Source of the DNA: an uncultured Myxococcales bacterium
GTDB lineage: Bacteria; Myxococcota; UBA4151
DNA: 64,000 nt
NCBI GenBank assembly: GCA_964013405.1
Contig: CAXGWI010000005.1
Location: forward strand, 3,411-67,410
Direction: 5' to 3'
The number at the start of each line of letters is the position of its first letter. The first letter of the stretch is position 1. Positions 730 through 30,136 of this stretch are shown one piece after another. Below the pieces are notes generated by a model. That model did not search any database. It was given only the letters and a program-made list of their open reading frames with translations, and had not been told where the DNA came from. The position numbers and the translations under genes are program-made.

Positions 730-2151
730 GTGCCAGCCCTGAGGTTTCACGTGCTTGCTTTGTCGCTCCGCCTTGTTTCGGTTTGGGCGCTGATCGGTCT
801 CAGCGCCGGTTCCGCGTGGGCGAGCCTGTGCTCCAACGACGCCCAATGCAGCCGAGCCTGGGAGCGTTGCCTTTCAGGCCACGGCATCTCCAGCCAATGC
901 GGCCCCGAGCCCAAGCTGCTGAACTACAAATGGCAACTCATCGGTGAAAGCGGCAGCAACTGTGGCTTTACCGAGACCGTCCGCCTCACCGGCAATTATG
1001 GCGAATGCACCACCGACAGTGATTGCAGCGACGACCGAGTCTGCGCCCAGGGATTTTGCCGCCAAGAACGCTGCGTGGGCCGGGTCAGCTATTATGTGGA
1101 TCCGGCCGGCAGCGATGATTTTTCGTCGGCGGAGCGCAGCAAATCAACCCAAGCGGTGGAAGATGCCATGCGCAGTTGGAAGCTGGTGCCCTGTACCGTC
1201 TGGGACGCAGCCTCCCGAGACGTGCCCGACAACATGACCTGGAGCGCCGCCAACGATGGCCTCAACAAGTTCTTCTTCATGGAGGAGGGCTTTCGGGGCC
1301 TGGGCGGGCCCAGCACCCTGGGCATCACCGTCTCCCACTTCCAAGGGGGCGGCTCCCCCACCAGCGACGCCGACATCGTCTTTAACGGCCAAGATCACCG
1401 CTGGACCAGCCGGGACGCCGGCAGCGGCAGTACGGATATTTTTTCCGTCGCTCTGCACGAGATCGGTCACTTTTTGGGCCTGGGTCACCCCTGTGAACTG
1501 GCCCAAGGGGACTGCTCCGTGGACGCGGTCATGAACCCCACCTGGAGCGGCCAGCCCGAAGTGGGCCCCCGCCCCAGCGATGCTCTGGGCGTCTGCGAGC
1601 TCTATCCCGGCGTTCGCCCCCCGGTGGACGACGGCAGCATGCGCTTGGGCGAGCCCTGCACCACCGATTGCGAATGCGCTTCGGGGATCTGCCGCTACGG
1701 CCAATGCAGCCGTCGCTGCCGCATCGATGACCCCTGCCCCCAGGCCGGCGGCACCAAATGCGTGCTGGCCCGCAACGGGGAAGGCCTGTGCATGAGCCCG
1801 GTCTTCGTGGGCGAAGGCCAAGCCAAATACCCCCTGGGTGCCCAGTGCTCCCCCCGGGAGGAGCACAAGTGTGAAAGCGGTCGATGCACCTTTGTCGACA
1901 TCCGTGGAGTTCGCTATGGTCTCTGCACCACCGCGTGCTCCGATGATGCCGACTGTTCCCCAGGTACGGTCTGTCGGGACGGCAGTTGTCTCTTAGACGA
2001 CCAGGTGGCTGAGCCCTGCACCTCGGGACCCGATCCCGTGGATCCAGGCGAGGGCTGCTCCTGCCAAGGGAGCGGCTCGGGTCTGGCCTTATTGATGATG
2101 GGCGGCGCGTTGTTTCTGCGACGACGCCGCGAGAGGAGTTCGTTCCCATGA
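730..2151 (+). CDS. Secreted matrixin-like (metzincin) zinc metalloprotease with C-terminal Cys-rich repeats and a MYXO-CTERM-type sorting tail
   Basis: Signal peptide (LALSLRLVSVWALIGLSAGSAWA). HEIGHFLGLGHP matches HExxHxxGxxH, with a downstream Met-turn VDAVMNP. C-terminal repeats follow the pattern CxxDxDCxSGxCxxGxC. The terminal GCSCQGSGSGLALLMMGGALFLRRRRE is MYXO-CTERM-like. The start codon is GTG at 730, with an alternative GTG at 751. Confidence 0.7.
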   Translation: MPALRFHVLALSLRLVSVWALIGLSAGSAWASLCSNDAQCSRAWERCLSGHGISSQCGPEPKLLNYKWQLIGESGSNCGFTETVRLTGNYGECTTDSDCSDDRVCAQGFCRQERCVGRVSYYVDPAGSDDFSSAERSKSTQAVEDAMRSWKLVPCTVWDAASRDVPDNMTWSAANDGLNKFFFMEEGFRGLGGPSTLGITVSHFQGGGSPTSDADIVFNGQDHRWTSRDAGSGSTDIFSVALHEIGHFLGLGHPCELAQGDCSVDAVMNPTWSGQPEVGPRPSDALGVCELYPGVRPPVDDGSMRLGEPCTTDCECASGICRYGQCSRRCRIDDPCPQAGGTKCVLARNGEGLCMSPVFVGEGQAKYPLGAQCSPREEHKCESGRCTFVDIRGVRYGLCTTACSDDADCSPGTVCRDGSCLLDDQVAEPCTSGPDPVDPGEGCSCQGSGSGLALLMMGGALFLRRRRERSSFP

Positions 2152-2699
2152 GAAGTCTTTTGCTGTTGAGCAGCCTTTGTGTGGCCAGCGCCGCCCAAGC
2201 CACCGTCGTCCTGAAAATGGACCGGGCCGAGATGACCCAGATGAGCGATGACGTGCTGATGGTTCGAGTCGGTGCCCAGCGGGTGGTGGAAGAACAACCC
2301 GGCGCCCTGGTGACCCTGACCGATCTGGAAGTCCTCGAAAGCTTCAAAGGCAAGTACGAGGCCGGCGACACCGTGCTCTTGCAGCAAGCCGGCGGGGTGA
2401 AGGGTGACTGGGTGATGCACATCCCCGGCAAGAACACCTACCGTTTCGGTGAAACTTTGGTGCTCTTTTTAAATCGTCACCGAGACCGGGTGGTGCCCGT
2501 GGGCGTCGGCATCGGCCGCATGGTGGTCGAGGGGGAAGGCGACAGTGCCCTGTTGAAGGAAGAGTACGGTGATGTGGCCTTCGCTGAGCGTAACCCCAAA
2601 GGGAAAATGCGCTTCATGCACGGACCCCCGCCGAGCAAGCCCGTGAAACTCAGCGTCTTTCGCCGCTGGATCAGCAGTCTCTTGGAGGGCTCGCGCTGA
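2148..2699 (+). CDS. Small secreted hypothetical protein (183 aa) embedded between two metzincin genes
   Basis: Signal peptide MRSLLLLSSLCVASAAQA. A GAGAGGAG Shine-Dalgarno sits 9 nt upstream. The start overlaps the upstream stop as ATGA (2148-2151), and the stop overlaps the downstream start as TGATG (2697-2701). I recognise no known domain. Confidence 0.5.
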   Translation: MRSLLLLSSLCVASAAQATVVLKMDRAEMTQMSDDVLMVRVGAQRVVEEQPGALVTLTDLEVLESFKGKYEAGDTVLLQQAGGVKGDWVMHIPGKNTYRFGETLVLFLNRHRDRVVPVGVGIGRMVVEGEGDSALLKEEYGDVAFAERNPKGKMRFMHGPPPSKPVKLSVFRRWISSLLEGSR

Positions 2700-4687
2700 T
2701 GCGTCTTCTCCTCGTCATGACCGCCTTAAGCCTCGCCACCCCGGCGGCGGCTTGGCAGGCGCAGATCGGCAAGTGGAGCCTCGATGGCTCGCCCAACATC
2801 GCCTACCGCGTGAACACCCGCGGGGCTCCCGGCATCGCCGGCGACTCGGATCTGCAAGCCATTCGAAACTCCTTCGACAGTTGGAGTGGTGTGAGTTGCT
2901 CCACCATCAACCTGGTGGAGTCTGGGACCACGAACAATTTACCCAACGCCCGCCGGGACAACGTGAACAATGTTTGGTTTGAAACCCGTGCCAATGCTTG
3001 GAGTTATGGCTCCGGCACCCTGGGCATCACCGGGACCTCCTTCTCGGGCTTTGGTTGTCGGGGCAATGGTCGGCCCGCTCGGGATTGCTGGATCGTCGAT
3101 GCCGATGTGCAGTTCAATGCGGTGCAACACGCAGACGGCTGGAGCACCAACGGGCGCGGCGGCTTGGACGTGGAGTCCATCTCCGTCCATGAGATCGGGC
3201 ACAGTCTCGGCCTCGATCACCCCTGCGAAAACTGCACCGTCGATGCGGTGATGACCCCGTCGTATGTGGGCTATCCCTTTCGCTATCCCCGCCAGGATGA
3301 CACCAACGCCGTTTGCAGTCTTTATCCCGGTGAGCGGGGCGGCCTCGGTTGGGGCTGCAACCGAGACTCCGACTGCAATTCCCGTATTTGCCTGGATGAC
3401 GGTTCCAACGATTACTGCACCGTGACCTGTGGGAACTGCCCGGACGGCTACGAGTGTCGGGCCGACAATGGTCGCAATGTCTGCCAACGGGCGGCCGCTG
3501 GCAGTGGCGCGGCCCAGCAAGGCGAAAGCTGTGCTGGCGGTCGGGCCTGCGGACCGGGCCTGCTGTGCCTGGGCGATCAAAACGACGCCACCTGCTATGC
3601 CGAGTGCGACCGGGGCAATTGCGAGGCCGGCTTTATTTGCGAAACCTTCTCATCCAATGGGCAAAACATCTCCATTTGCTTGCCCGGTGGCACCACTGCT
3701 GAAGGGGAGCCATGCGATTCGCTGTATGCCTGCGCGGCGGGCCTGGAATGCGCCCCTGTGGGTCGTAGCTATGTTTGTGCCAGAGGCTGCCGGAGCGACA
3801 GCGATTGCAACGAGCGCGAGAACTGTCAGGAGTTGACCCGGCCCGGCATCGACACGGTCCAGGTCTGTGTGGAGTCCAACACCGCCCTCGAAGGGGAGAG
3901 TTGTCAGCGTAAGCGTTGCGCCGATGGTCTGACCTGCTTGAGTGATGCGGGCGAACGGCTTTGCTTTCGCAACTGTCGCAGTCGGGCCGACTGCAGCTCG
4001 GGCCTCGACTGCATCGAGATCAGCGATACGATCTCCATCTGCTATGCCAACAACTGCACCGAAGACCGGGACTGCGAGCGGGGTAAAATCTGCCTCGAAG
4101 GCAGTTGCGTGGACGAGACCGGTGGCTGCCGAGCCGATACCGAATGCCGCCGGGGTGAGCTCTGTGAAAACGGTGAATGCACGCCCTTCGAAAGCAATGG
4201 TGATCTGCCGGACAACGAACGCTGCGCCGACGATGGCGACTGCGTGTCGGGTCGCTGTGCAGCCATTGGCTCCACTCGGGTTTGTCGCCCCGGCTGCGAT
4301 CGCCGCCTGGGGCACTTCGAATGCCCCGAGGGCTTTGGCTGCATCCCCGACGATGAAGGCAATGGCTATTGCGAGCGCGGCGCCGACGAAGGGGGCCAAA
4401 GCATCGGTAGCCCCTGCAGCAGCGCCATCGAATGCCGCCAAGGCATCTGTGGCAGCGACTGGGGCTTTGGTGGCGAATGTCTCACCTGGTGTGGCGAGAA
4501 CTTCATCTGTCCCACGGGCTATCTCTGCGATTCGGCCAACAACCCCATGCCCGGGCTCTGTGTGCCCGAAGGGGGCGGTGTCGCCCCCGGTCTGGCCTGT
4601 GCCTGTGAGGGCACGACACCGGACTTCTGGTTCATGGGATTAGGACTGCTCGCAGTGCTCGGTTGGCGTCGCCGCCGCTCAGCCTAA
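2699..4687 (+). CDS. Secreted matrixin-like zinc metalloprotease 2 with an extended Cys-rich repeat region and a MYXO-CTERM-type tail
   Basis: Signal peptide MRLLLVMTALSLATPAAA. HEIGHSLGLDHPC is followed by VDAVMTP. There are more than ten CxxDxDC/CxxGxC-type repeats. The C-terminus is ACACEGTTPDFWFMGLGLLAVLGWRRRRSA. Confidence 0.7.
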   Translation: MRLLLVMTALSLATPAAAWQAQIGKWSLDGSPNIAYRVNTRGAPGIAGDSDLQAIRNSFDSWSGVSCSTINLVESGTTNNLPNARRDNVNNVWFETRANAWSYGSGTLGITGTSFSGFGCRGNGRPARDCWIVDADVQFNAVQHADGWSTNGRGGLDVESISVHEIGHSLGLDHPCENCTVDAVMTPSYVGYPFRYPRQDDTNAVCSLYPGERGGLGWGCNRDSDCNSRICLDDGSNDYCTVTCGNCPDGYECRADNGRNVCQRAAAGSGAAQQGESCAGGRACGPGLLCLGDQNDATCYAECDRGNCEAGFICETFSSNGQNISICLPGGTTAEGEPCDSLYACAAGLECAPVGRSYVCARGCRSDSDCNERENCQELTRPGIDTVQVCVESNTALEGESCQRKRCADGLTCLSDAGERLCFRNCRSRADCSSGLDCIEISDTISICYANNCTEDRDCERGKICLEGSCVDETGGCRADTECRRGELCENGECTPFESNGDLPDNERCADDGDCVSGRCAAIGSTRVCRPGCDRRLGHFECPEGFGCIPDDEGNGYCERGADEGGQSIGSPCSSAIECRQGICGSDWGFGGECLTWCGENFICPTGYLCDSANNPMPGLCVPEGGGVAPGLACACEGTTPDFWFMGLGLLAVLGWRRRRSA

Positions 4688-6136: not shown

Positions 6137-6824
6137 TCCGGTCTATAACGAGGAGGCCATCCTCGAAGAGGCCCTCGTTGGCCTCTTTGAAGACCTCTCC
6201 GCCCATGCCGGTGACTATGAGGTGATTCTGTCCATGAATGGCTGCGTGGATCAAACCGAAGCCATCGCAGAGCGCTTGGCGAAGGCAGAGCCTCGGTTGC
6301 AACTTCATCGCTGTCCCACCCCCGACTACGGCCAGGCCTTGAAAGAGGGCATCGAACGAGCCCGGGGTGCGCTGGTGATCTGCGAAGAGATCGATCTGTG
6401 TGATGACCGCTTTCATCGCACCGCCCTTGCGATGCTGTTGGCCGATCCGGAGTTGGACATGGTCGTGGGCTCCAAAGCCCTCCAGGGCGCCCGGGATCAG
6501 CGCCCTTGGACCCGCCGCATGGCCACCCGCATCCTCAATCGTATGCTCCGGGCCGCCACCGGTTGGCGGGGCACCGATACCCATGGCTTGAAGGCCCTGC
6601 GCCGAGAACGCCTGTTGCCCGTGATCTCCCGCTGTGAGCTTCGAGCGGATCTCTTCGCCAGCGAGATGGTCATTCGGGCCAACCTCGATGGCCTGCGTGT
6701 GGTGGAATATCCCATCGAGTTGATGGAAAAACGCCCCCCCAGCGTCGCGCTGGTGCGCCGGGTCCCGAAGGTCCTGACGGGCATGGTGAAACTGGCCACG
6801 GCCGTGCGCCGACGGGGCGACTAG
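6048..6824 (+). CDS. Family 2 glycosyltransferase (polyprenol-phosphate sugar synthase / DPM1-like)
   Basis: LSVVIPVYNEEAILEE...YEVILSMNGCVDQT is a GT2 N-terminal signature, and the length matches the DPM1-like group. The start is probably GTG at 6117, since the annotated 5' end overlaps the divergent oxidoreductase gene. Confidence 0.75.
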   Translation: MLAKRPAPCRTKASIPPSTRGREVDLSVVIPVYNEEAILEEALVGLFEDLSAHAGDYEVILSMNGCVDQTEAIAERLAKAEPRLQLHRCPTPDYGQALKEGIERARGALVICEEIDLCDDRFHRTALAMLLADPELDMVVGSKALQGARDQRPWTRRMATRILNRMLRAATGWRGTDTHGLKALRRERLLPVISRCELRADLFASEMVIRANLDGLRVVEYPIELMEKRPPSVALVRRVPKVLTGMVKLATAVRRRGD

Positions 6825-8125
6825 TCGCTGTCTTTCAGGCGACGATAAATCGTCCGCACCCCAAGACCTAAGGCCTTCGCAGCCTGTTCCCGGTTGCCGT
6901 TGTAGCGATGGAGCGTCCATCGGATCACCTCGGACTCGATCCGCTTCATATCCCAGTCGGGCAGGATCTGGAGCCCGGCTTCGGCCCCCGGTGCACGGGG
7001 GCTGCCGAAGTCCTCGGGCAAGGCATCCAAGGCCTCGCCGGGATGGAGGGCACAAAGACGGGCACAATAATGACGCAGTTGGCGAATGTTGCCGGGCCAG
7101 GCCTGCTTTTGCAGGGACTCCAAAGCCTGGGGCCCCAGCTTCGGTGCGCTGGTACCCCCTTGCTGTTCGAGGAAATGGGCCACCAGCAAGGGGATGTCAT
7201 CCCGCCGTTCGGCCAGCCGGGGGATGGTCAAGGTCGCGCCGGCGAGCCGGTAGTAGAGATCCTCCCGCAGGCGCTCACCCACCTCCCGGTTGGTGGCGCT
7301 GACAACCCGCACATCGACAGCGATGGGTTGATTGCTGCCCAGGGGCGTCACCTCACCGTTCTCAAGAATGCGCAGCAGTTTCGCCTGCACGCTCATGGGC
7401 ATCTCGCCGATCTCGTCGAGAAACAAGGTGCCGCCGTCGGCCTCCTGGAAGCGGCCGATTCGCTTGCGGTCGGCCCCCGTAAAGGCCCCCCGGGTGTGAC
7501 CGAACAACTCGCTCTCAAGAAGGCTTTCGGGGATGGCCGCGCAATTGATGGCCACGAAGGGCTTGGTGCCCCGGGGGCCGCCGTAGTGCAGGGCCCGGGC
7601 TGCCAACTCTTTGCCGCTGCCACTGTCCCCTTGAATCAGGATCGGGAGATCGGAGGGGGCGAGGCGGTCCAATTGTTGTCGCAACTGGTCCACAGCCGCA
7701 CTGGCACCGAGAATCTCACTGCCGCTCTTTTGCGCCACCTGGTGGCGCAGCCGCTCCACCTCGCTGCGCATTCGGACCCGCTCGCCGGCCCGGCGGACCG
7801 TCTCCACCATCAAGTCGGGATCGAGGGGTTTGGTCAGGAAGTGGAAGGCGCCATCGCCCATGGCCCGGGCCGCCACATCGGCCGTGCCGTAGGCGGTCAT
7901 CAACACCAGCTCAGGGGCGGCCCGCTCGCTCTTCAAGGTGCTCAGCAAATCGAGGCCGTCCATGCCAGGCAGCATCAAATCGGTGAGCACCACCTCGCAA
8001 GGAGGACGGGCGGCCAGATAGTCTTCGGCCCGTTCAAATGCGGTCACGTCGAAGCCGGCCCGGGCCAGGATGGCGGCGGCGACTCGACGCCCCCCCGGGT
8101 CGTCCTCTACCAGGCTGACGCGCAA
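6821..8125 (-). CDS. Sigma-54-dependent response regulator (NtrC family: REC + AAA+ + HTH)
   Basis: REC domain (VVLTDLMLPGMDGLDLL). Walker A GDSGSGKE. GAFTGA motif in ELFGHTRGAFTGA. The C-terminus TIYRRLK is a Fis-type HTH. Confidence 0.85.
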   Translation of the reverse strand: MRVSLVEDDPGGRRVAAAILARAGFDVTAFERAEDYLAARPPCEVVLTDLMLPGMDGLDLLSTLKSERAAPELVLMTAYGTADVAARAMGDGAFHFLTKPLDPDLMVETVRRAGERVRMRSEVERLRHQVAQKSGSEILGASAAVDQLRQQLDRLAPSDLPILIQGDSGSGKELAARALHYGGPRGTKPFVAINCAAIPESLLESELFGHTRGAFTGADRKRIGRFQEADGGTLFLDEIGEMPMSVQAKLLRILENGEVTPLGSNQPIAVDVRVVSATNREVGERLREDLYYRLAGATLTIPRLAERRDDIPLLVAHFLEQQGGTSAPKLGPQALESLQKQAWPGNIRQLRHYCARLCALHPGEALDALPEDFGSPRAPGAEAGLQILPDWDMKRIESEVIRWTLHRYNGNREQAAKALGLGVRTIYRRLKDSD

Positions 8126-8182
8126 GGCTTGTTCTCCCCTCTAAAGCTGGTGCAGTCTTCGTACGAAAAGGGGACTTAGTCC

Positions 8183-9670
8183 ATGGGCAAACTGCCCTTC
8201 GGTCCGGTGATTGCTGCGAGCCTTAGTGGGCCCGGATCTTCCCTACAGTTCGCAGATCACCAGCGCCGGGACCAACCGGAAGCGGGGAGCCTCGATGCTG
8301 CCCATTTCTTGCTGGTGGTGGCCGAGCGCGCCGTCCTGCATTCGGTGCAGCGGGCCGGCCATCGGCCCAGTCGCTGCGTTGTCCTTGCCGAGCAACAACA
8401 GTTGCTGGAGCGGGCCGGTGCCGATCCGGTCAAGCCCCCGGCCGCCAGCCTGCCCCCCGAGCAGATCCATGGGCTGCTGCAGCGCATCGCCCCGGATTTG
8501 GCCCGTTATGGACTCACCGGGGTGTCCCGCTTGGAGGCGGACTTTGCCCCGGTTCTGGAGGCCATGGAGGCCCGGGGCCTGCCCTTGGACGTGCCCGCCT
8601 GGCGGCAGGTGCTCGCCGAGGCTGAGGGCCGGGCTGCGGCCGCCCGCACCCGACTCGGGGCCTCTGTGGGTACGGATTTAACCGGCAATCCGAACCTGGA
8701 GCCCGGCGAGCGAGGCCGTATTCTGGCCTGGTTTCAAGCCGAGGGTTACCCCATCCAGTCCACCTCGAAACACGCCCTCGGGGGCCTCGATCATCCCGCG
8801 GCCAAGGCCCTGCTGGACTGGCGGGAGGCCGCCAAACTCACCAGCACCTACGAGGGCTATCTCGACCGCCTGGCCGGAGGGCGTATCTTTGGTCGCTTTC
8901 AAGGCCTGGGCGCGGCCAGTGGGCGCATGAGCTGCGGTCACCCTAATCTGCAAAACATCCCGGCCCGTCTCCGGCCCTGCGTCCGGGCCCCGGAGGGGCG
9001 GGTCTTGGTCAGCGCAGACTATTCGGGCTGCGAGCTGCGCATCGTCGCCGCCCTGTCCCGAGACGAGGCCCTCATCGAAGCCCTCCTCGAAGCCGACTTT
9101 CACTCGGCCGTGGCCCGCCGGCTTTTTAATCAGCCGGTCTCCAAAACCGAAAACCCCGAGCTTCGACACCAGGCGAAGGGCATCAACTTTGGCCTGCTCT
9201 ACGGCATGGGGGCCAAGTCCTTGGGTCAGGATCTAGGCATCAGCACCTCCGAGGCCCGGGCTTTGATGGACCGTTATTTTGAGGGCTTTCCCCGCCTGGC
9301 CCAGTGGCGAAAAGAAGCCCTCGAAGCCCCCAAGCAGCAGGGCTTTTTGCGGACTCGACTCGGCCGTCGCCTCGCCGTGGATCGGCAACGGGACATCGGG
9401 CCCTTAGCCCTGAACTTTCCGGTTCAAGGAGGCGGGGCAGACTTGATCAAACGGGCGGCAGTCCGGGTGGAGCAGGGCCTCGCAAAAGCGGGTCTCGATG
9501 GCCAGTTGGTCAACATGATTCACGACGAACTTCTCCTCGAAGCCTCCGCGCCCGATGGGCAAGCGGTGGCCGAGTTGGTCAAGGGGGAGATGATCACCGC
9601 CGGGGCCGAGTTGTTCAAGGAAGTCCCGATGGCCGTCGACGCCGCCGTCTCGGCGAACTGGGCCCACTAG
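8183..9670 (+). CDS. Family A (Pol I-like) DNA polymerase, polymerase domain only (no 5'-3' or 3'-5' exonuclease domains)
   Basis: Motif A VLVSADYSGCELRIVAALS. Motif B RHQAKGINFGLLYGMG. Motif C LVNMIHDELLLE. The C-terminus VPMAVDAAVSANWAH resembles Klenow. The protein is only 495 aa. A divergent sigma-54 regulator gene ends 57 bp upstream, leaving no room for exonuclease domains. Confidence 0.8.
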   Translation: MGKLPFGPVIAASLSGPGSSLQFADHQRRDQPEAGSLDAAHFLLVVAERAVLHSVQRAGHRPSRCVVLAEQQQLLERAGADPVKPPAASLPPEQIHGLLQRIAPDLARYGLTGVSRLEADFAPVLEAMEARGLPLDVPAWRQVLAEAEGRAAAARTRLGASVGTDLTGNPNLEPGERGRILAWFQAEGYPIQSTSKHALGGLDHPAAKALLDWREAAKLTSTYEGYLDRLAGGRIFGRFQGLGAASGRMSCGHPNLQNIPARLRPCVRAPEGRVLVSADYSGCELRIVAALSRDEALIEALLEADFHSAVARRLFNQPVSKTENPELRHQAKGINFGLLYGMGAKSLGQDLGISTSEARALMDRYFEGFPRLAQWRKEALEAPKQQGFLRTRLGRRLAVDRQRDIGPLALNFPVQGGGADLIKRAAVRVEQGLAKAGLDGQLVNMIHDELLLEASAPDGQAVAELVKGEMITAGAELFKEVPMAVDAAVSANWAH

Positions 9671-9710
9671 TCGTTCTTTTCGTTTGAGCCTTCGGTCCCT
9701 TGTGTCGTTG

Positions 9711-9731
9711 GGGTCCGTAGGACCCTTTTTT
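9711..9731 (+). terminator. Putative rho-independent terminator downstream of the Pol A-like gene
   Basis: GGGTCC-GTAG-GACCC hairpin followed immediately by TTTTTT (9726-9731). Confidence 0.5.
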
Positions 9732-9762
9732 GCAAAGGGTCATGACAAGGAGCTCACCCCTG

Positions 9763-12072
9763 ATGTCCCAACCCCAACCGACGCGAATTCTCCAGTCCAT
9801 CTACGACGAGTCCCAGCGGCTCTGTGCGGAGGTGGGTCGGCGCCATGACCCCCACAGCTTTTATGTGCTCATGGCCTTGTTCACCGTGGAGAATCAGGCC
9901 GGTCATCTGCTGCGCTTGTCCGGCTTCTCCGAGGACATCCTGCTCGACAACTTCCCCAACGACTGGAGTGAGCAAGAAGGGGCCCTCGGGCGCCTGCAGG
10001 CCGATTGCACCGAGCTGGCCCACCGCATGGGCGATGATCGGGTGAACTCCCTCCATCTGCTCTTCGCCCTCGCCACCGACGAAGAGGGCCGGGCCCGGGA
10101 AGCCCTGCAGCGCAGCGGCCTCCAGATCGGTGTTAGCCTCGCCAAAGTCCTCGATCGCTGCGAACGGGTGCTGGTGCGGGCTCAAAGGGGCCAAAGTCGC
10201 ATGGGCAGCGTCCCCGAAGCGAAGGTTGCCCACGGCGCCACAAGAACCCGCCCGCCGGTGGCCCGCACCCTGCCGCCGATGGTGGCGCCGGGCGAAGAGT
10301 ATAAGACCCTCGCGCCCCAGTGGGTCGAGCCCGAACAGAGCCCGACACCCACTCTGGACAAGCTCTGCGAAGACATGACCGCCCTGGCCTTGACCGGGGC
10401 CATCAGCCCCATCGTTGGCCGGGGGCAGGAGTTAGAAAAAATCCTCGATATTCTCGGCAAGAGGCGCAGCAACAATCCGGTGATCGTCGGCCCCCCCGGG
10501 GTGGGGAAGACCGCCCTGGTCGAGGGCCTCGCCTACCGGCTTCAGGAGGCCGGCGATGAGCGGCGCATTCTGGGGCTCGACGTGGGGCGACTGCTGGCCG
10601 GAACCGGTCTGCGGGGCTCCCTCTCCGATCGGCTCGGCCGCTTGCGCCAAGAGATCCAGGACAGCGATCAGGCCGTGGTGCTCTTCATCGATGAGATTCA
10701 CGGTCTGCTCGGTTCCGGCGAGGGGGTGAATCAGGAGATCGCCGGCGAGTTGAAGGCCGCCCTCGCCCGGGGGCAATTGCCCTGCATCGGCGCCACCACC
10801 GAGGACGAATACCGCATGGTCTTCGCCAAAGACCCGGCCTTGTCCCGCCGCTTCAGTCCCGTCTTCATCGCCGAGCCCAGCAAGGAGGAAGCCTTTCAGA
10901 TGCTTCAGGGCTCGGCCTCGGCCTATGGCTGCCACCACGGCTTGGAATTGCCCGACGACGCCCTGCGGGCCGCTGTCGATCTCTCCCATCGTTATCTGGA
11001 CGAGGGGCAGCTGCCGGCCAAGGCCTTCGACCTCCTCGACCTGGCGGCCAGTCGAGCTCAACGTACGGGGGCCACAGCCCTCAGCGTCGAAGCCGTCGCC
11101 GGGGTGGTGGCCGAGCGGGCCCGGATGCCCATCGAGCGGTTGCTGGGCGGCGACGAAGAAAAACTCCTGCAGTTCGAAGCCGAGTTGGCCCAGCGGGTCG
11201 TCGGTCACGATGAAGCGCTCCACAAGATCGCCACCACCCTGCGGCGCAATCGGGCCGGCTTCGGTGGCGACAAGCCCATCGGCTCCTTCTTACTTCTGGG
11301 GCCCACCGGCGTGGGCAAGACGGAGGTGGCCCGAGCCACGGCCGAGGCGCTCTTTGGTCGCCACGACGACATGCTGCGCTTCGACATGGGGGAGTTCACC
11401 GAAGCCCACAGCGTGGCTCGCTTGATCGGCGCACCCCCCGGCTACGTCGGCCACGAAGAAGGAGGCCAACTCACCGAAGGTATTCGCCGCCGCCCCTACC
11501 GAGTCCTGCTCTTCGACGAGATCGAAAAGGGCCACCCCGATGTTTTACAAGTCCTCCTCGCGCTCCTCGATGAAGGTCGAGTCAGCGACTCCCGGGGCTT
11601 TACGGTCGATGCCCGCCACTGCGTGGTCTTTCTCACCTCCAACTTGGGAGCCCGCCGGGCGACCCAGCGGAGCGTTGGTTTCGGCGGTGGCTCCCGGGAT
11701 GTGGGAGGCGATGTCCTGGCGGAGGCGAAGCGCAAGTTGCCCCCCGAGTTCTTCAATCGCTTGGACGAAGTCCTCGCCTTTGAGCCCCTGACGCCGGCCG
11801 AGGCCCGGGCCATCGCCGAGCGCCTGATGGAGGCCTCCCTTGACCGCTTCCACGAGCATCGTCGGATCACCGTCGACGTGGAAGAGCGCGTCTTCGATTG
11901 GTTGGTGGAGGAGGGCTATTCGGAGGCTGATGGGGCCCGACCCATGCGACGGACGGTGCAGAATGTCCTCGAGTCGGCCCTGGCAGAAGCGGTCTTAAAG
12001 GGCGACTTGGCCGACGGTGGCGAGGCCCAACTGGTGCTCGGCGCCACCGGGCCTGAGGTCCGATGCGCCTAG
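9763..12072 (+). CDS. ClpA/ClpC-type two-ring AAA+ ATPase (Clp/Hsp100 family, short middle region)
   Basis: Clp_N-like N-terminus. D1 Walker A VGPPGVGKT. D2 Walker A GPTGVGKT. Sensor region YRVLLFDEIEKGHPDVLQVLLALLDEGRVSD. The two P-loops are about 270 aa apart, which is ClpA/ClpC-like rather than ClpB-like. An RSVGFGGG loop resembles the ClpP-docking VGF/IGF loop. AAGGAG lies 11 nt before ATG 9763 (the track ORF starts at TTG 9730). Confidence 0.8.
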   Translation: MSQPQPTRILQSIYDESQRLCAEVGRRHDPHSFYVLMALFTVENQAGHLLRLSGFSEDILLDNFPNDWSEQEGALGRLQADCTELAHRMGDDRVNSLHLLFALATDEEGRAREALQRSGLQIGVSLAKVLDRCERVLVRAQRGQSRMGSVPEAKVAHGATRTRPPVARTLPPMVAPGEEYKTLAPQWVEPEQSPTPTLDKLCEDMTALALTGAISPIVGRGQELEKILDILGKRRSNNPVIVGPPGVGKTALVEGLAYRLQEAGDERRILGLDVGRLLAGTGLRGSLSDRLGRLRQEIQDSDQAVVLFIDEIHGLLGSGEGVNQEIAGELKAALARGQLPCIGATTEDEYRMVFAKDPALSRRFSPVFIAEPSKEEAFQMLQGSASAYGCHHGLELPDDALRAAVDLSHRYLDEGQLPAKAFDLLDLAASRAQRTGATALSVEAVAGVVAERARMPIERLLGGDEEKLLQFEAELAQRVVGHDEALHKIATTLRRNRAGFGGDKPIGSFLLLGPTGVGKTEVARATAEALFGRHDDMLRFDMGEFTEAHSVARLIGAPPGYVGHEEGGQLTEGIRRRPYRVLLFDEIEKGHPDVLQVLLALLDEGRVSDSRGFTVDARHCVVFLTSNLGARRATQRSVGFGGGSRDVGGDVLAEAKRKLPPEFFNRLDEVLAFEPLTPAEARAIAERLMEASLDRFHEHRRITVDVEERVFDWLVEEGYSEADGARPMRRTVQNVLESALAEAVLKGDLADGGEAQLVLGATGPEVRCA

Positions 12073-28612: not shown

Positions 28613-30136
28613 CTAATCGCGGTCTCGGTCTTTGAGTTTGGCGTGCAGGGCCTGGCGACTGATCCCAAGGCAGCGGGCCGCTTCTGATTTTTTGCCGCGG
28701 CAGTGTTTCAGGGTTGCGTCGACGATGCGCTGTTCGAAGGCGCGCATTTGATCCTTCAGGCTGACGCTGCCATCGGCGATGATGTCCAGGCTGCGGGGGG
28801 CGACTTCCTGTCGAAGTTCGGGTGAGCAGCGATTGAGCTCGATGGCCTCACCGGGCGGCGTAAGGGCCACGAGTCGCTCTGCCTCTCGGCGCAGCTGCCG
28901 CACATTACCCGGCCAGTGATAGGCCTCAAAGCGTTCCACCACTTCTGGGGCGATCCCCCGGATCGGCTTTTGCCACGCTTCGCTGGTCTGCGCGACAAAG
29001 CGTTCCAGCATCAAGGGAATGTCCAGCAGTCGCTCCCGCAGGGGGGGGACGGTGACTTGGACCGAGAAGAGTCGATAGTAGAGGTCTTCCCGAAAGCTAC
29101 CGTCGGCCACCTTGGCTTCTAGATCTTGATTGGTCGCTGACAACAAGCGGAAGTGGTAGTGGACCAGCCGCTGACCACCCACTCGGCGCCCTTCTTTTTG
29201 CTCCAATGCGCGCAGGAGCTTTGCCTGCAGGGCCAAAGGCATTTCACCCACTTCATCGAGAAAGAGCGTGCCGCTCGCGGCCATCTCCAAAAATCCGGGT
29301 TTGCTTTTCTCTGCCCCCGTAAAAGCCCCCCGTTCATGGCCAAAGAACTCACTCTCGATGAGGTTTTCTGGGATGGCCGCGCAATTGACGGCCACGAAGG
29401 GGCGCCCTGGGTCGCCGGAGAGTTGGTGTAGTCGCCGGGCCACCAGCTCCTTGCCCGTGCCATTCTCGCCGGTGATCAAGACGGCCGCAGGGGTTGGTCC
29501 GAGGGCTTCGATCTCATCGAGGATCTGAATCATCTGTGGGTCACTGGCGATAAAGGAGCGGCTGCGATCGGGTAGGGACGCGAGCTCTCGACTCAGTTCG
29601 GCGCCGAGCGCGACCAGGCGATCCTGGGCCCAGACGGACTCGATGGCGTGGGAAAGGCCGTCGGCTAGCCCTTCGAGGCGCTCTTGGTCCTGATCGCTAA
29701 AGCCGCCCTCCTTGTTGAGCACTTCGATAACCCCCACGACCTCAGAGCCCATGGCTCGGCTGCGGACGGGTACACAGAGGATGTTTTGGAGTTGGAAGCC
29801 GGTGGCCTTCTCAGCCTGCTGATGGGAGGGGGCTGCGGGGTTGGGCTCATTGTCGATCACTGCTTCGCCGCTGGTCGCCACTCGGCCGGCGATGCTTTTG
29901 GGGTCGCTGACCTCGATCTCTCCTTCGGAGATCCCCGTGCCATACTTGGCGCCCAAGGTGTCGTCTTCGGGGTCGGCTAGGAAGATGGAGCAACGCTCAC
30001 AGTGAAAGAGCTTGGGGAGCAGCTCCACGAAGACTCGAATCAGTCGATCATGGGTTTCCTCCCGACCGAGATCGGCGAGAGATTGCACCCGGTGCTGGAC
30101 GTGTTGGAGCCGTTCGCCAAAACCAAGAGTGTCCAT
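28613..30136 (-). CDS. Sigma-54-dependent transcriptional activator with N-terminal GAF domain
   Basis: GAF-like N-terminus. Walker A GENGTGKE. GAFTGA motif in FFGHERGAFTGA. C-terminal HTH (ARCLGISRQALHAKLK). Confidence 0.85.
   Translation of the reverse strand: MDTLGFGERLQHVQHRVQSLADLGREETHDRLIRVFVELLPKLFHCERCSIFLADPEDDTLGAKYGTGISEGEIEVSDPKSIAGRVATSGEAVIDNEPNPAAPSHQQAEKATGFQLQNILCVPVRSRAMGSEVVGVIEVLNKEGGFSDQDQERLEGLADGLSHAIESVWAQDRLVALGAELSRELASLPDRSRSFIASDPQMIQILDEIEALGPTPAAVLITGENGTGKELVARRLHQLSGDPGRPFVAVNCAAIPENLIESEFFGHERGAFTGAEKSKPGFLEMAASGTLFLDEVGEMPLALQAKLLRALEQKEGRRVGGQRLVHYHFRLLSATNQDLEAKVADGSFREDLYYRLFSVQVTVPPLRERLLDIPLMLERFVAQTSEAWQKPIRGIAPEVVERFEAYHWPGNVRQLRREAERLVALTPPGEAIELNRCSPELRQEVAPRSLDIIADGSVSLKDQMRAFEQRIVDATLKHCRGKKSEAARCLGISRQALHAKLKDRDRD

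Follow-up and report, generated by a model that had tools for sequence, protein, structure and literature searches.

Among bacteria, auxiliary family-A DNA polymerases with a dead exonuclease have to date been reported from Actinobacteria only. These enzymes, APEX 1/2 or PolA2, coexist with DNA polymerase I (Pol I), have low processivity and show a repair-linked deletion phenotype (PMC10201439; PMC12926913). Here we describe a Klenow-like family-A polymerase gene (pol) which encodes a protein of 495 amino acids (aa) and lies in a 64000-nucleotide stretch of contig CAXGWI010000005.1, from an uncultured, marine Myxococcales bacterium; this whole 64-kb stretch is called the window below. The locus would be a second, independent case of such a polymerase, now in Myxococcota.

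An intact family-A polymerase gene

The gene and the parts of its product are as follows.

8183..9670, + strand: complete Klenow-like family-A DNA polymerase gene, 495 aa, stop codon included (open reading frame list and sequence; Pfam PF00476)
8195..8512, + strand: vestigial 3′–5′ exonuclease-fold domain, predicted to be catalytically dead, residues ~5–110 (alignment with exonuclease-intact relatives)
8516..9667, + strand: polymerase domain (thumb, palm and fingers), residues ~112–495 (aligns to Klentaq 140–534; catalytic columns invariant across 45 homologues)
9017..9040, + strand: motif A, D279-YSGCELR-286, with a catalytic Asp and, as steric gate, Glu284 (sequence)
9164..9205, + strand: motif B (O-helix), RHQAKGINFGLLYG, i.e. 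R328-HQAK332-GINF336-GLLY340-G (sequence)
9521..9529, + strand: motif C, H447-D448-E449, with the second catalytic Asp (sequence; invariant in all alignments)

Residues 192–494 match the Pfam model DNA_pol_A (PF00476) with E = 4e-77 and 260 bits against a curated cutoff of 34.3, which places the protein in family A. Among its sequence relatives of solved structure Klentaq is the best match (E = 1e-51), followed by Klenow, Mycobacterium smegmatis Pol1 and Bst LF, down to 1e-41, over residues ~117–493. An AlphaFold2 (AF2) model of the protein has a pLDDT of 92.2 and gave Foldseek TMq values of 0.78–0.85 with Klentaq, Bst LF and Klenow; Aquifex Pol I was also among the structural matches. The motifs that an earlier note on this DNA had read from the open reading frame (ORF), namely DYSGCELR, RHQAKGINFGLLYG, HDE and the C-terminal NWAH, are all present in the sequence. 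So are the catalytic residues of family A, i.e. the Asp residues of motifs A and C, the Arg, Lys and Tyr of motif B, the Arg of the TGR motif and the steric-gate Glu. Across 45 homologues the metal ligands D279 and D448, the steric gate E284 and the O-helix residues R328, K332, F336 and Y340 are invariant, as are R248 (TGR motif), N411, Q415, D420 (motif 6) and H447; Y280, L285 and R286 of motif A and N335 of motif B are further invariant residues. Position B3 of motif B, as defined in PMC10201439, is Phe336 (in NFG), as in Pol I, and this residue is the same throughout the family. Ahead of motif 6 the fingers loop has lost ~9 residues, a deletion that is confined to the clade of 483–510-aa proteins. 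The position equivalent to Taq I614 and E. coli I709, which influences fidelity, is occupied by Cys283, and this residue is invariant within the exonuclease-dead clades.

The ORF cannot be extended upstream because an in-frame TAG at 8177–8179 lies directly 5′ of the ATG. Orthologues of 495–497 aa, with 52–95% identity, were found in independent ENA, NCBI, JGI and Logan assemblies, and all of those with readable flanks have a regulator gene directly upstream on the opposite strand. As this regulator directly adjoins pol in all those loci, an exonuclease remnant further upstream is excluded; the frameshifted leftover that, by the earlier note, would have spoken against its reading was found in none of these loci. 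One public metagenome-assembled genome (MAG), in the cluster of P0002, carries the orthologue as two adjoining ORFs, both partial, with 129 and 346 aa (P0271/P0272; HBU49309.1/HBU49308.1). Since the protein has 495 aa in all other assemblies, the split most probably reflects a frameshift or an error of assembly in this one MAG. Pairwise ratios of non-synonymous to synonymous substitution rates (dN/dS) were ~0.04–0.10 for the polymerase domain and ~0.06–0.18 for the N-terminal one. Saturation of dS makes these values rough, yet they lie well below 1, and both domains are under purifying selection. In addition, the G+C content of the gene is the same as that of its surroundings, and its neighbours are ordinary chromosomal genes, with no integrase or phage genes found there. 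Truncation, frameshift or mis-assembly is ruled out by the conserved length and context across assemblies and by the dN/dS values. The gene is real and intact, and it is probably monocistronic, as the earlier note had it; both the 495-aa form and the upstream regulator recur in independent assemblies.

A vestigial proofreading domain

The earlier note had held that the protein lacks both exonuclease domains and that there is no room for either. For the 5′–3′ nuclease this stands: PF02739 and PF01367 do not match the 495-aa protein, the 5′ nuclease domain is absent, and neither a second polA nor a 5′ nuclease domain was found elsewhere in the window. For the 3′–5′ exonuclease it does not. Residues ~5–110 align with the exonuclease domain of PF01612-positive relatives of ~580 aa, which have intact DEDD motifs (DTETTGLD, HNAKFD, DT and YAxxD). 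In the 495-aa protein and in its clade all four DEDD metal-binding positions are substituted and the stretch from ExoII to ExoIII has lost ~45 residues; the region is no longer recognized by Pfam in the window protein. The remnant keeps an ordered secondary structure (β9–15, β20–24, β43–46, α49–57, β65–67, α68–77 and α92–108), and structural comparison gave values of 7.7 with Pol theta, 7.2 with DpoZ, 7.0 with Aquifex Pol I, 6.7 with M. smegmatis Pol1, 6.4 with both Pol nu and Taq and 5.7 with Klenow, in each case with 100–110 residues aligned at ~2.5–3 Å.

The protein therefore carries a minimal proofreading domain that has kept the DEDD fold and is predicted to be catalytically dead, and only the 5′ nuclease domain is truly absent. 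At ~110 residues this remnant is the smallest among the family-A polymerases compared. It is probably retained as a structural scaffold or as a scaffold for binding DNA or protein. Taken with the active-site residues described above, we infer an active DNA-dependent DNA polymerase that would lack both proofreading and primer or flap removal of its own.

Relatives and descent

The named relatives are all MAGs labelled as Myxococcales, Myxococcota or Deltaproteobacteria bacterium, in which the protein is annotated as ‘hypothetical protein’ or ‘DNA polymerase A family protein’; no cultured Myxococcota occurs among the named matches. The clade of the window protein (483–510 aa; the short clade) is small, with one or two representatives at 50% identity among 1.8 billion proteins. 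A sister clade of 492–571 aa, likewise exonuclease-dead and ~40% identical to the window protein, is larger, with no fewer than 85 clusters when grouped at 90% identity. After a drop in score from 636 to 548 bits there follow exonuclease-proficient two-domain PolAs of ~560–590 aa from Myxococcota and other phyla. A metagenome scan with family-specific patterns added three new family loci, i.e. L094 (86% aa identity to the window gene), L095 and L096. The patterns used to scan the genome collection were generic PolA motifs, which mostly returned unrelated Pol I genes, with L010, L012 and L013 among the matches listed.

In a neighbour-joining tree of the polymerase domain canonical three-domain Pol I forms a separate group, the short clade stands apart on a long branch of its own, and the partner of the sister clade is the exonuclease-proficient group. 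By this tree and by profile scores, the nearest relatives of both exonuclease-dead clades are the PF01612-positive PolAs of ~580 aa, and the family descends from such exonuclease-proficient two-domain enzymes. Proofreading may have been lost once or twice, both of which fit the topology. The protein falls far short of the NCBIfam equivalog cutoffs for Pol I (TIGR00593 and NF004397), with 238 against 600 and 271 against 720, and scores 278 against a cutoff of 640 with the PRK14975 ‘bifunctional 3′–5′ exonuclease/polymerase’ models. At the tip of the thumb some sister-clade proteins (P0123, P0126 and P0128; residue ~172–198) carry Q[RKS]DLF, which resembles a β-clamp pentapeptide, where the consensus of that clade is RDLFG; the counterpart in the short clade is GTDLTG or GRDLGG.

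Neither of two PolA surveys (PMC10201439; PMC12926913) mentions Myxococcota PolAs, and the literature searched yielded nothing specific on a PolA paralogue in Myxococcus. The second of these surveys covers complete genomes only, and the absence of the family from both is probably due to its occurrence in MAGs only.

A conserved divergent response regulator

The earlier note saw no conserved partner for the polymerase. This view has to be revised, given that a sigma-54 response regulator is conserved beside pol across the family. In the window the two genes and the region between them are arranged as follows, with the regulator in the divergent position, 57 bp upstream, where the earlier note had placed it.

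6821..8125, − strand: NtrC-type response regulator with receiver, sigma-54 AAA+ (GAFTGA) and Fis helix–turn–helix domains (Pfam; conserved neighbour of pol)
8126..8182, no strand: divergent intergenic region of 57 bp, with ribosome-binding site AAAAGGGGA at 8166–8174, in-frame TAG at 8177–8179 and element GTGCAGTCT at 8150–8158 (sequence and cross-locus comparison)

The regulator, the start of which lies 57 bp from the ATG of pol, looks functional by eye, with the receiver Asp in TDLMLPGMDG and the GAFTGA motif in place. It is immediately divergent from pol in the window, in the close relatives L001–L005 and L094, in L006 (58% polymerase identity) and likewise in L090/L091, L095 and L096 (53–58% polymerase identity). 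In the sister clade it is adjacent in L007 and separated by one small gene in L092, and in four further loci (L008, L012, L093 and L101) it is divergent from an apparent operon in which a HAMP-GGDEF gene comes first and pol last. Between these two, L008 and L101 have a gene for a phosphonate-binding-like periplasmic protein; behind the regulator, L008, L012 and L101 have a gene with an MshEN (c-di-GMP-binding) domain. This sister-clade context suggests a possible link to c-di-GMP. The stretches that hold the GGDEF, pol and regulator genes are as follows.

L008, 2098–7653: sister-clade GGDEF–pol–regulator stretch
L012, 1511–7102: the same
L093, 3435–7611: the same
L101, 4182–11650: the same

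The regulator is thus adjacent to pol in every short-clade locus examined and near it in most sister-clade loci; an adjacent regulator is absent in the sister-clade loci L013 and L102 and in the examined exonuclease-proficient relatives P0020 and P0025. These data clearly show that the regulator and pol are linked. The identities of regulator and polymerase fall in step (78/73, 54/55–58 and ~40/~40%), and this parallel divergence indicates that the two have been co-inherited as a divergent pair. The window also holds a second sigma-54 activator paralogue of 507 aa (28613..30136, − strand), the AAA+ core of which shares 39% identity with the core of the regulator beside pol; this gives a baseline for judging orthology.

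Midway in the regulator–pol intergenic regions of the short clade (57–67 bp) a 9-nt element is conserved, which reads GTGCAGTCT in the window (family pattern G[TG]GCA[GC]TCT) and has equivalent positions in L001, L005, L090, L095 and L096. The region of the element reads TGGTGCA in the window and in L001, which resembles one NtrC-type half-site; a second half-site is absent. We found no convincing sigma-54 −24/−12 promoter (GG-N10-GC) upstream of pol in seven short-clade loci, the window included, and five sister-clade loci, and a scan of the whole window for TGGCAC-N5-TTGC gave no site with up to two mismatches in the interval 6430–10005. The best sigma-54 candidate in the window, TGGTGCAGTCTTCGTA, was rejected, its GG being lost in L005. 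A scan for sigma-70 promoters returned no sites. The linkage suggests that expression of pol is tied to a two-component signal, although in the absence of a sigma-54 promoter this is speculative.

Probable function

Because the enzyme is inferred to be unable to proofread or to remove primers and flaps, we judge it rather probable that it serves as an auxiliary, non-proofreading polymerase for gap filling or repair, possibly a lesion-tolerant one. It would extend primers on DNA templates with no proofreading and no flap or primer removal, and would work alongside a housekeeping Pol I, in parallel to the actinobacterial APEX/PolA2 enzymes. Several points weigh against this role. The window holds no canonical polA; no β-clamp motif was found by regular expressions in 22 family members; and neither a damage-response nor a sigma-54 promoter was identified, an SOS/LexA box not having been searched for. 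In addition, ‘PolA1-like’ enzymes without a 5′ nuclease can replace Pol I if a stand-alone 5′ nuclease is supplied (PMC12926913), and because of this a housekeeping role also has to be weighed.

The protein might, then, be the only family-A polymerase of its lineage, a split housekeeping Pol I that fills gaps between Okazaki fragments and in excision repair, with a stand-alone FEN-like 5′ nuclease encoded elsewhere, as in Aquifex or the ‘PolA1-like’ enzymes. Phe at B3, the near-equal similarity to the Pol I models, the strong purifying selection and the presence of Aquifex Pol I among the structural matches are all consistent with this, and the loss of proofreading need not speak against it, as the proofreading site is dead in about half of the Pol I orthologues (PMC12926913). 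However, the protein scores far under the Pol I equivalog cutoffs and does not branch from within canonical Pol I in the tree, the family is patchy, confined to MAGs and without cultured Myxococcota among its named matches, and no stand-alone 5′ nuclease lies within the window. Cultured Myxococcota, moreover, generally carry canonical polA. PolA1 is present in 96% of complete bacterial genomes (PMC12926913). On balance we regard a split Pol I as unlikely, if still worth serious consideration.

Less probable again, and in our estimate doubtful, is a signal-controlled module in which, under a specific stress, the regulator and the c-di-GMP parts seen in the sister clade (GGDEF and MshEN) would turn on an error-prone polymerase, be it to induce mutagenesis or to bypass lesions. 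The regulator–pol pairing is kept across clades of ~40% identity while other neighbours change, the two proteins diverge in parallel, the 9-nt element is conserved in their shared intergenic region, and in the sister clade pol stands in an apparent operon with HAMP-GGDEF, divergent from the regulator. Vertical descent with conserved synteny could, however, explain this pairing, such regulators are numerous in Myxococcota, with a second one in the window itself, the regulator is missing beside pol in L013 and L102, and no locus has a −24/−12 sigma-54 promoter upstream of pol. If this doubtful proposal were true, a phosphorelay or second messenger, and not LexA/SOS, would switch a non-proofreading family-A polymerase, and uncultured Myxococcota would have a pathway for mutagenesis or repair that can be programmed by signals and that arose independently of APEX and of Pol theta/nu.

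An origin from a phage, mobile element or defence system, or as a decaying pseudogene or polA assembly artefact, is essentially excluded: set against generic similarity to phage PolA families (PHROGs), a weak PADLOC ‘RTasPolA’ match of 104 bits and the gene split in one MAG are the ordinary chromosomal neighbours without integrase or phage genes, the normal G+C content, synteny that is stable across species-level divergence, an identical ORF length in many assemblies, dN/dS well below 1 for both domains and a PADLOC score far under the Pfam PolA score.

Downstream and wider neighbourhood

Downstream of pol the window has the following features, the first of which the earlier note had already reported as a rho-independent terminator.

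9710..9733, + strand: intrinsic-terminator-like hairpin of 7 bp, G+C-rich, GGGGTCC-GTA-GGACCCT followed by TTTTTTG, 40 nt past the stop codon (terminator scan and sequence)
9730..12072, + strand: ClpA/B-like double-AAA+ ATPase ORF; its mechanical start, TTG 9730, falls inside the terminator tail of pol

The hairpin and T-run are present at these positions. The ClpA/B-like gene likely starts at ATG 9763, behind AAGGAG (9748–9753), to give 769 aa, a length that is also called for this gene in related contigs; its position downstream of pol is conserved in close relatives only. On the other side of the pair lie two Matrixin-like (Peptidase_M10) genes at 730..2151 and 2699..4687 (+ strand), with a 183-aa ORF between them. 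This trio also occurs near the regulator–pol pair in L001–L005 and, together with ArgJ, in L006 and L090, so that local synteny is partly kept at 55–58% polymerase identity.

Comparison with known polymerase systems

Several described groups can be set aside. The protein is not a canonical Pol I (PolA1), as it has no FEN-like 5′–3′ exonuclease domain and scores under the equivalog cutoffs. With the CHEAPs and the staphylococcal CCPol (Czernecki 2023, PMC10201439) it shares the nature of an auxiliary bacterial PolA, and the exonuclease domain of CCPol is also incomplete; however, in CHEAPs the exonuclease is active and B3 is Leu, neither of which holds for the window protein, and CCPol resides on mobile elements with MP and the Cch2 helicase, neither of which is present at the window locus. 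The DRT-associated ‘RTasPolA’ (PADLOC PDLC03816, 475 positions) is of similar size, but membership was rejected, as a score of 104 bits amounts to the similarity that PolAs share in general and the surroundings contain no defence genes. The eukaryotic Pol theta and Pol nu differ by their insertion loops and helicase domain, both of which the window protein lacks, and by a much lower similarity (E ~1e-28).

Klentaq/Stoffel and Bst LF are the best sequence and structure matches and share with the window protein a vestigial exonuclease fold, a full polymerase domain and Phe at B3. Those enzymes are, however, proteolytic or engineered fragments of a three-domain Pol I, whereas the two-domain form in the window is a native gene; its exonuclease remnant is even shorter, and the deletion of ~9 residues in the fingers loop sets the 483–510-aa clade apart. 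The window protein fits the description of the ‘PolA1-like’ enzymes (PMC12926913) and of Pol I of the Aquificae type in its lack of a 5′–3′ exonuclease, and may also resemble them in having a polymerase domain near that of PolA1. The ‘PolA1-like’ group is defined on complete genomes, whereas the window family is known from MAGs only, with a proofreading site that is dead and shrunken where its nearest relatives of ~580 aa have DEDD intact.

The APEX 1/2 or PolA2 enzymes of Actinobacteria (PMC10201439; PMC12926913) share the most with the window protein, i.e. the two-domain plan of a bacterial PolA that lacks the 5′ nuclease, an exonuclease that is dead yet folded (DxE lost), a chromosomal, non-prophage context and a presumed auxiliary, low-fidelity role in repair. 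Membership of this group was nevertheless rejected. APEX enzymes have a diagnostic Leu at B3 where the window protein has Phe, the host belongs to Myxococcota and not to Actinobacteria, and the scores with PRK14975 fall far below the cutoffs. The QxxLF clamp motif, which APEX carries in a loop of its vestigial exonuclease domain, has no equivalent, since no conserved QL[SD]LF or QxxLxF was found by regular expressions in the same 22 family members; the only loose match, QQQLL at residue 71, falls within a predicted helix. Its exonuclease domain is also much smaller (~110 aa) and its exonuclease-proficient relatives are another set. The family does not overturn current understanding. It offers enzymologists a compact, natural exo-minus enzyme, it lets one ask why exonuclease domains persist once dead, and it may connect DNA synthesis with two-component or c-di-GMP signalling, in a polymerase that resembles APEX/PolA2 in domain plan and presumed role and differs from it in the B3 residue, host and set of nearest relatives.

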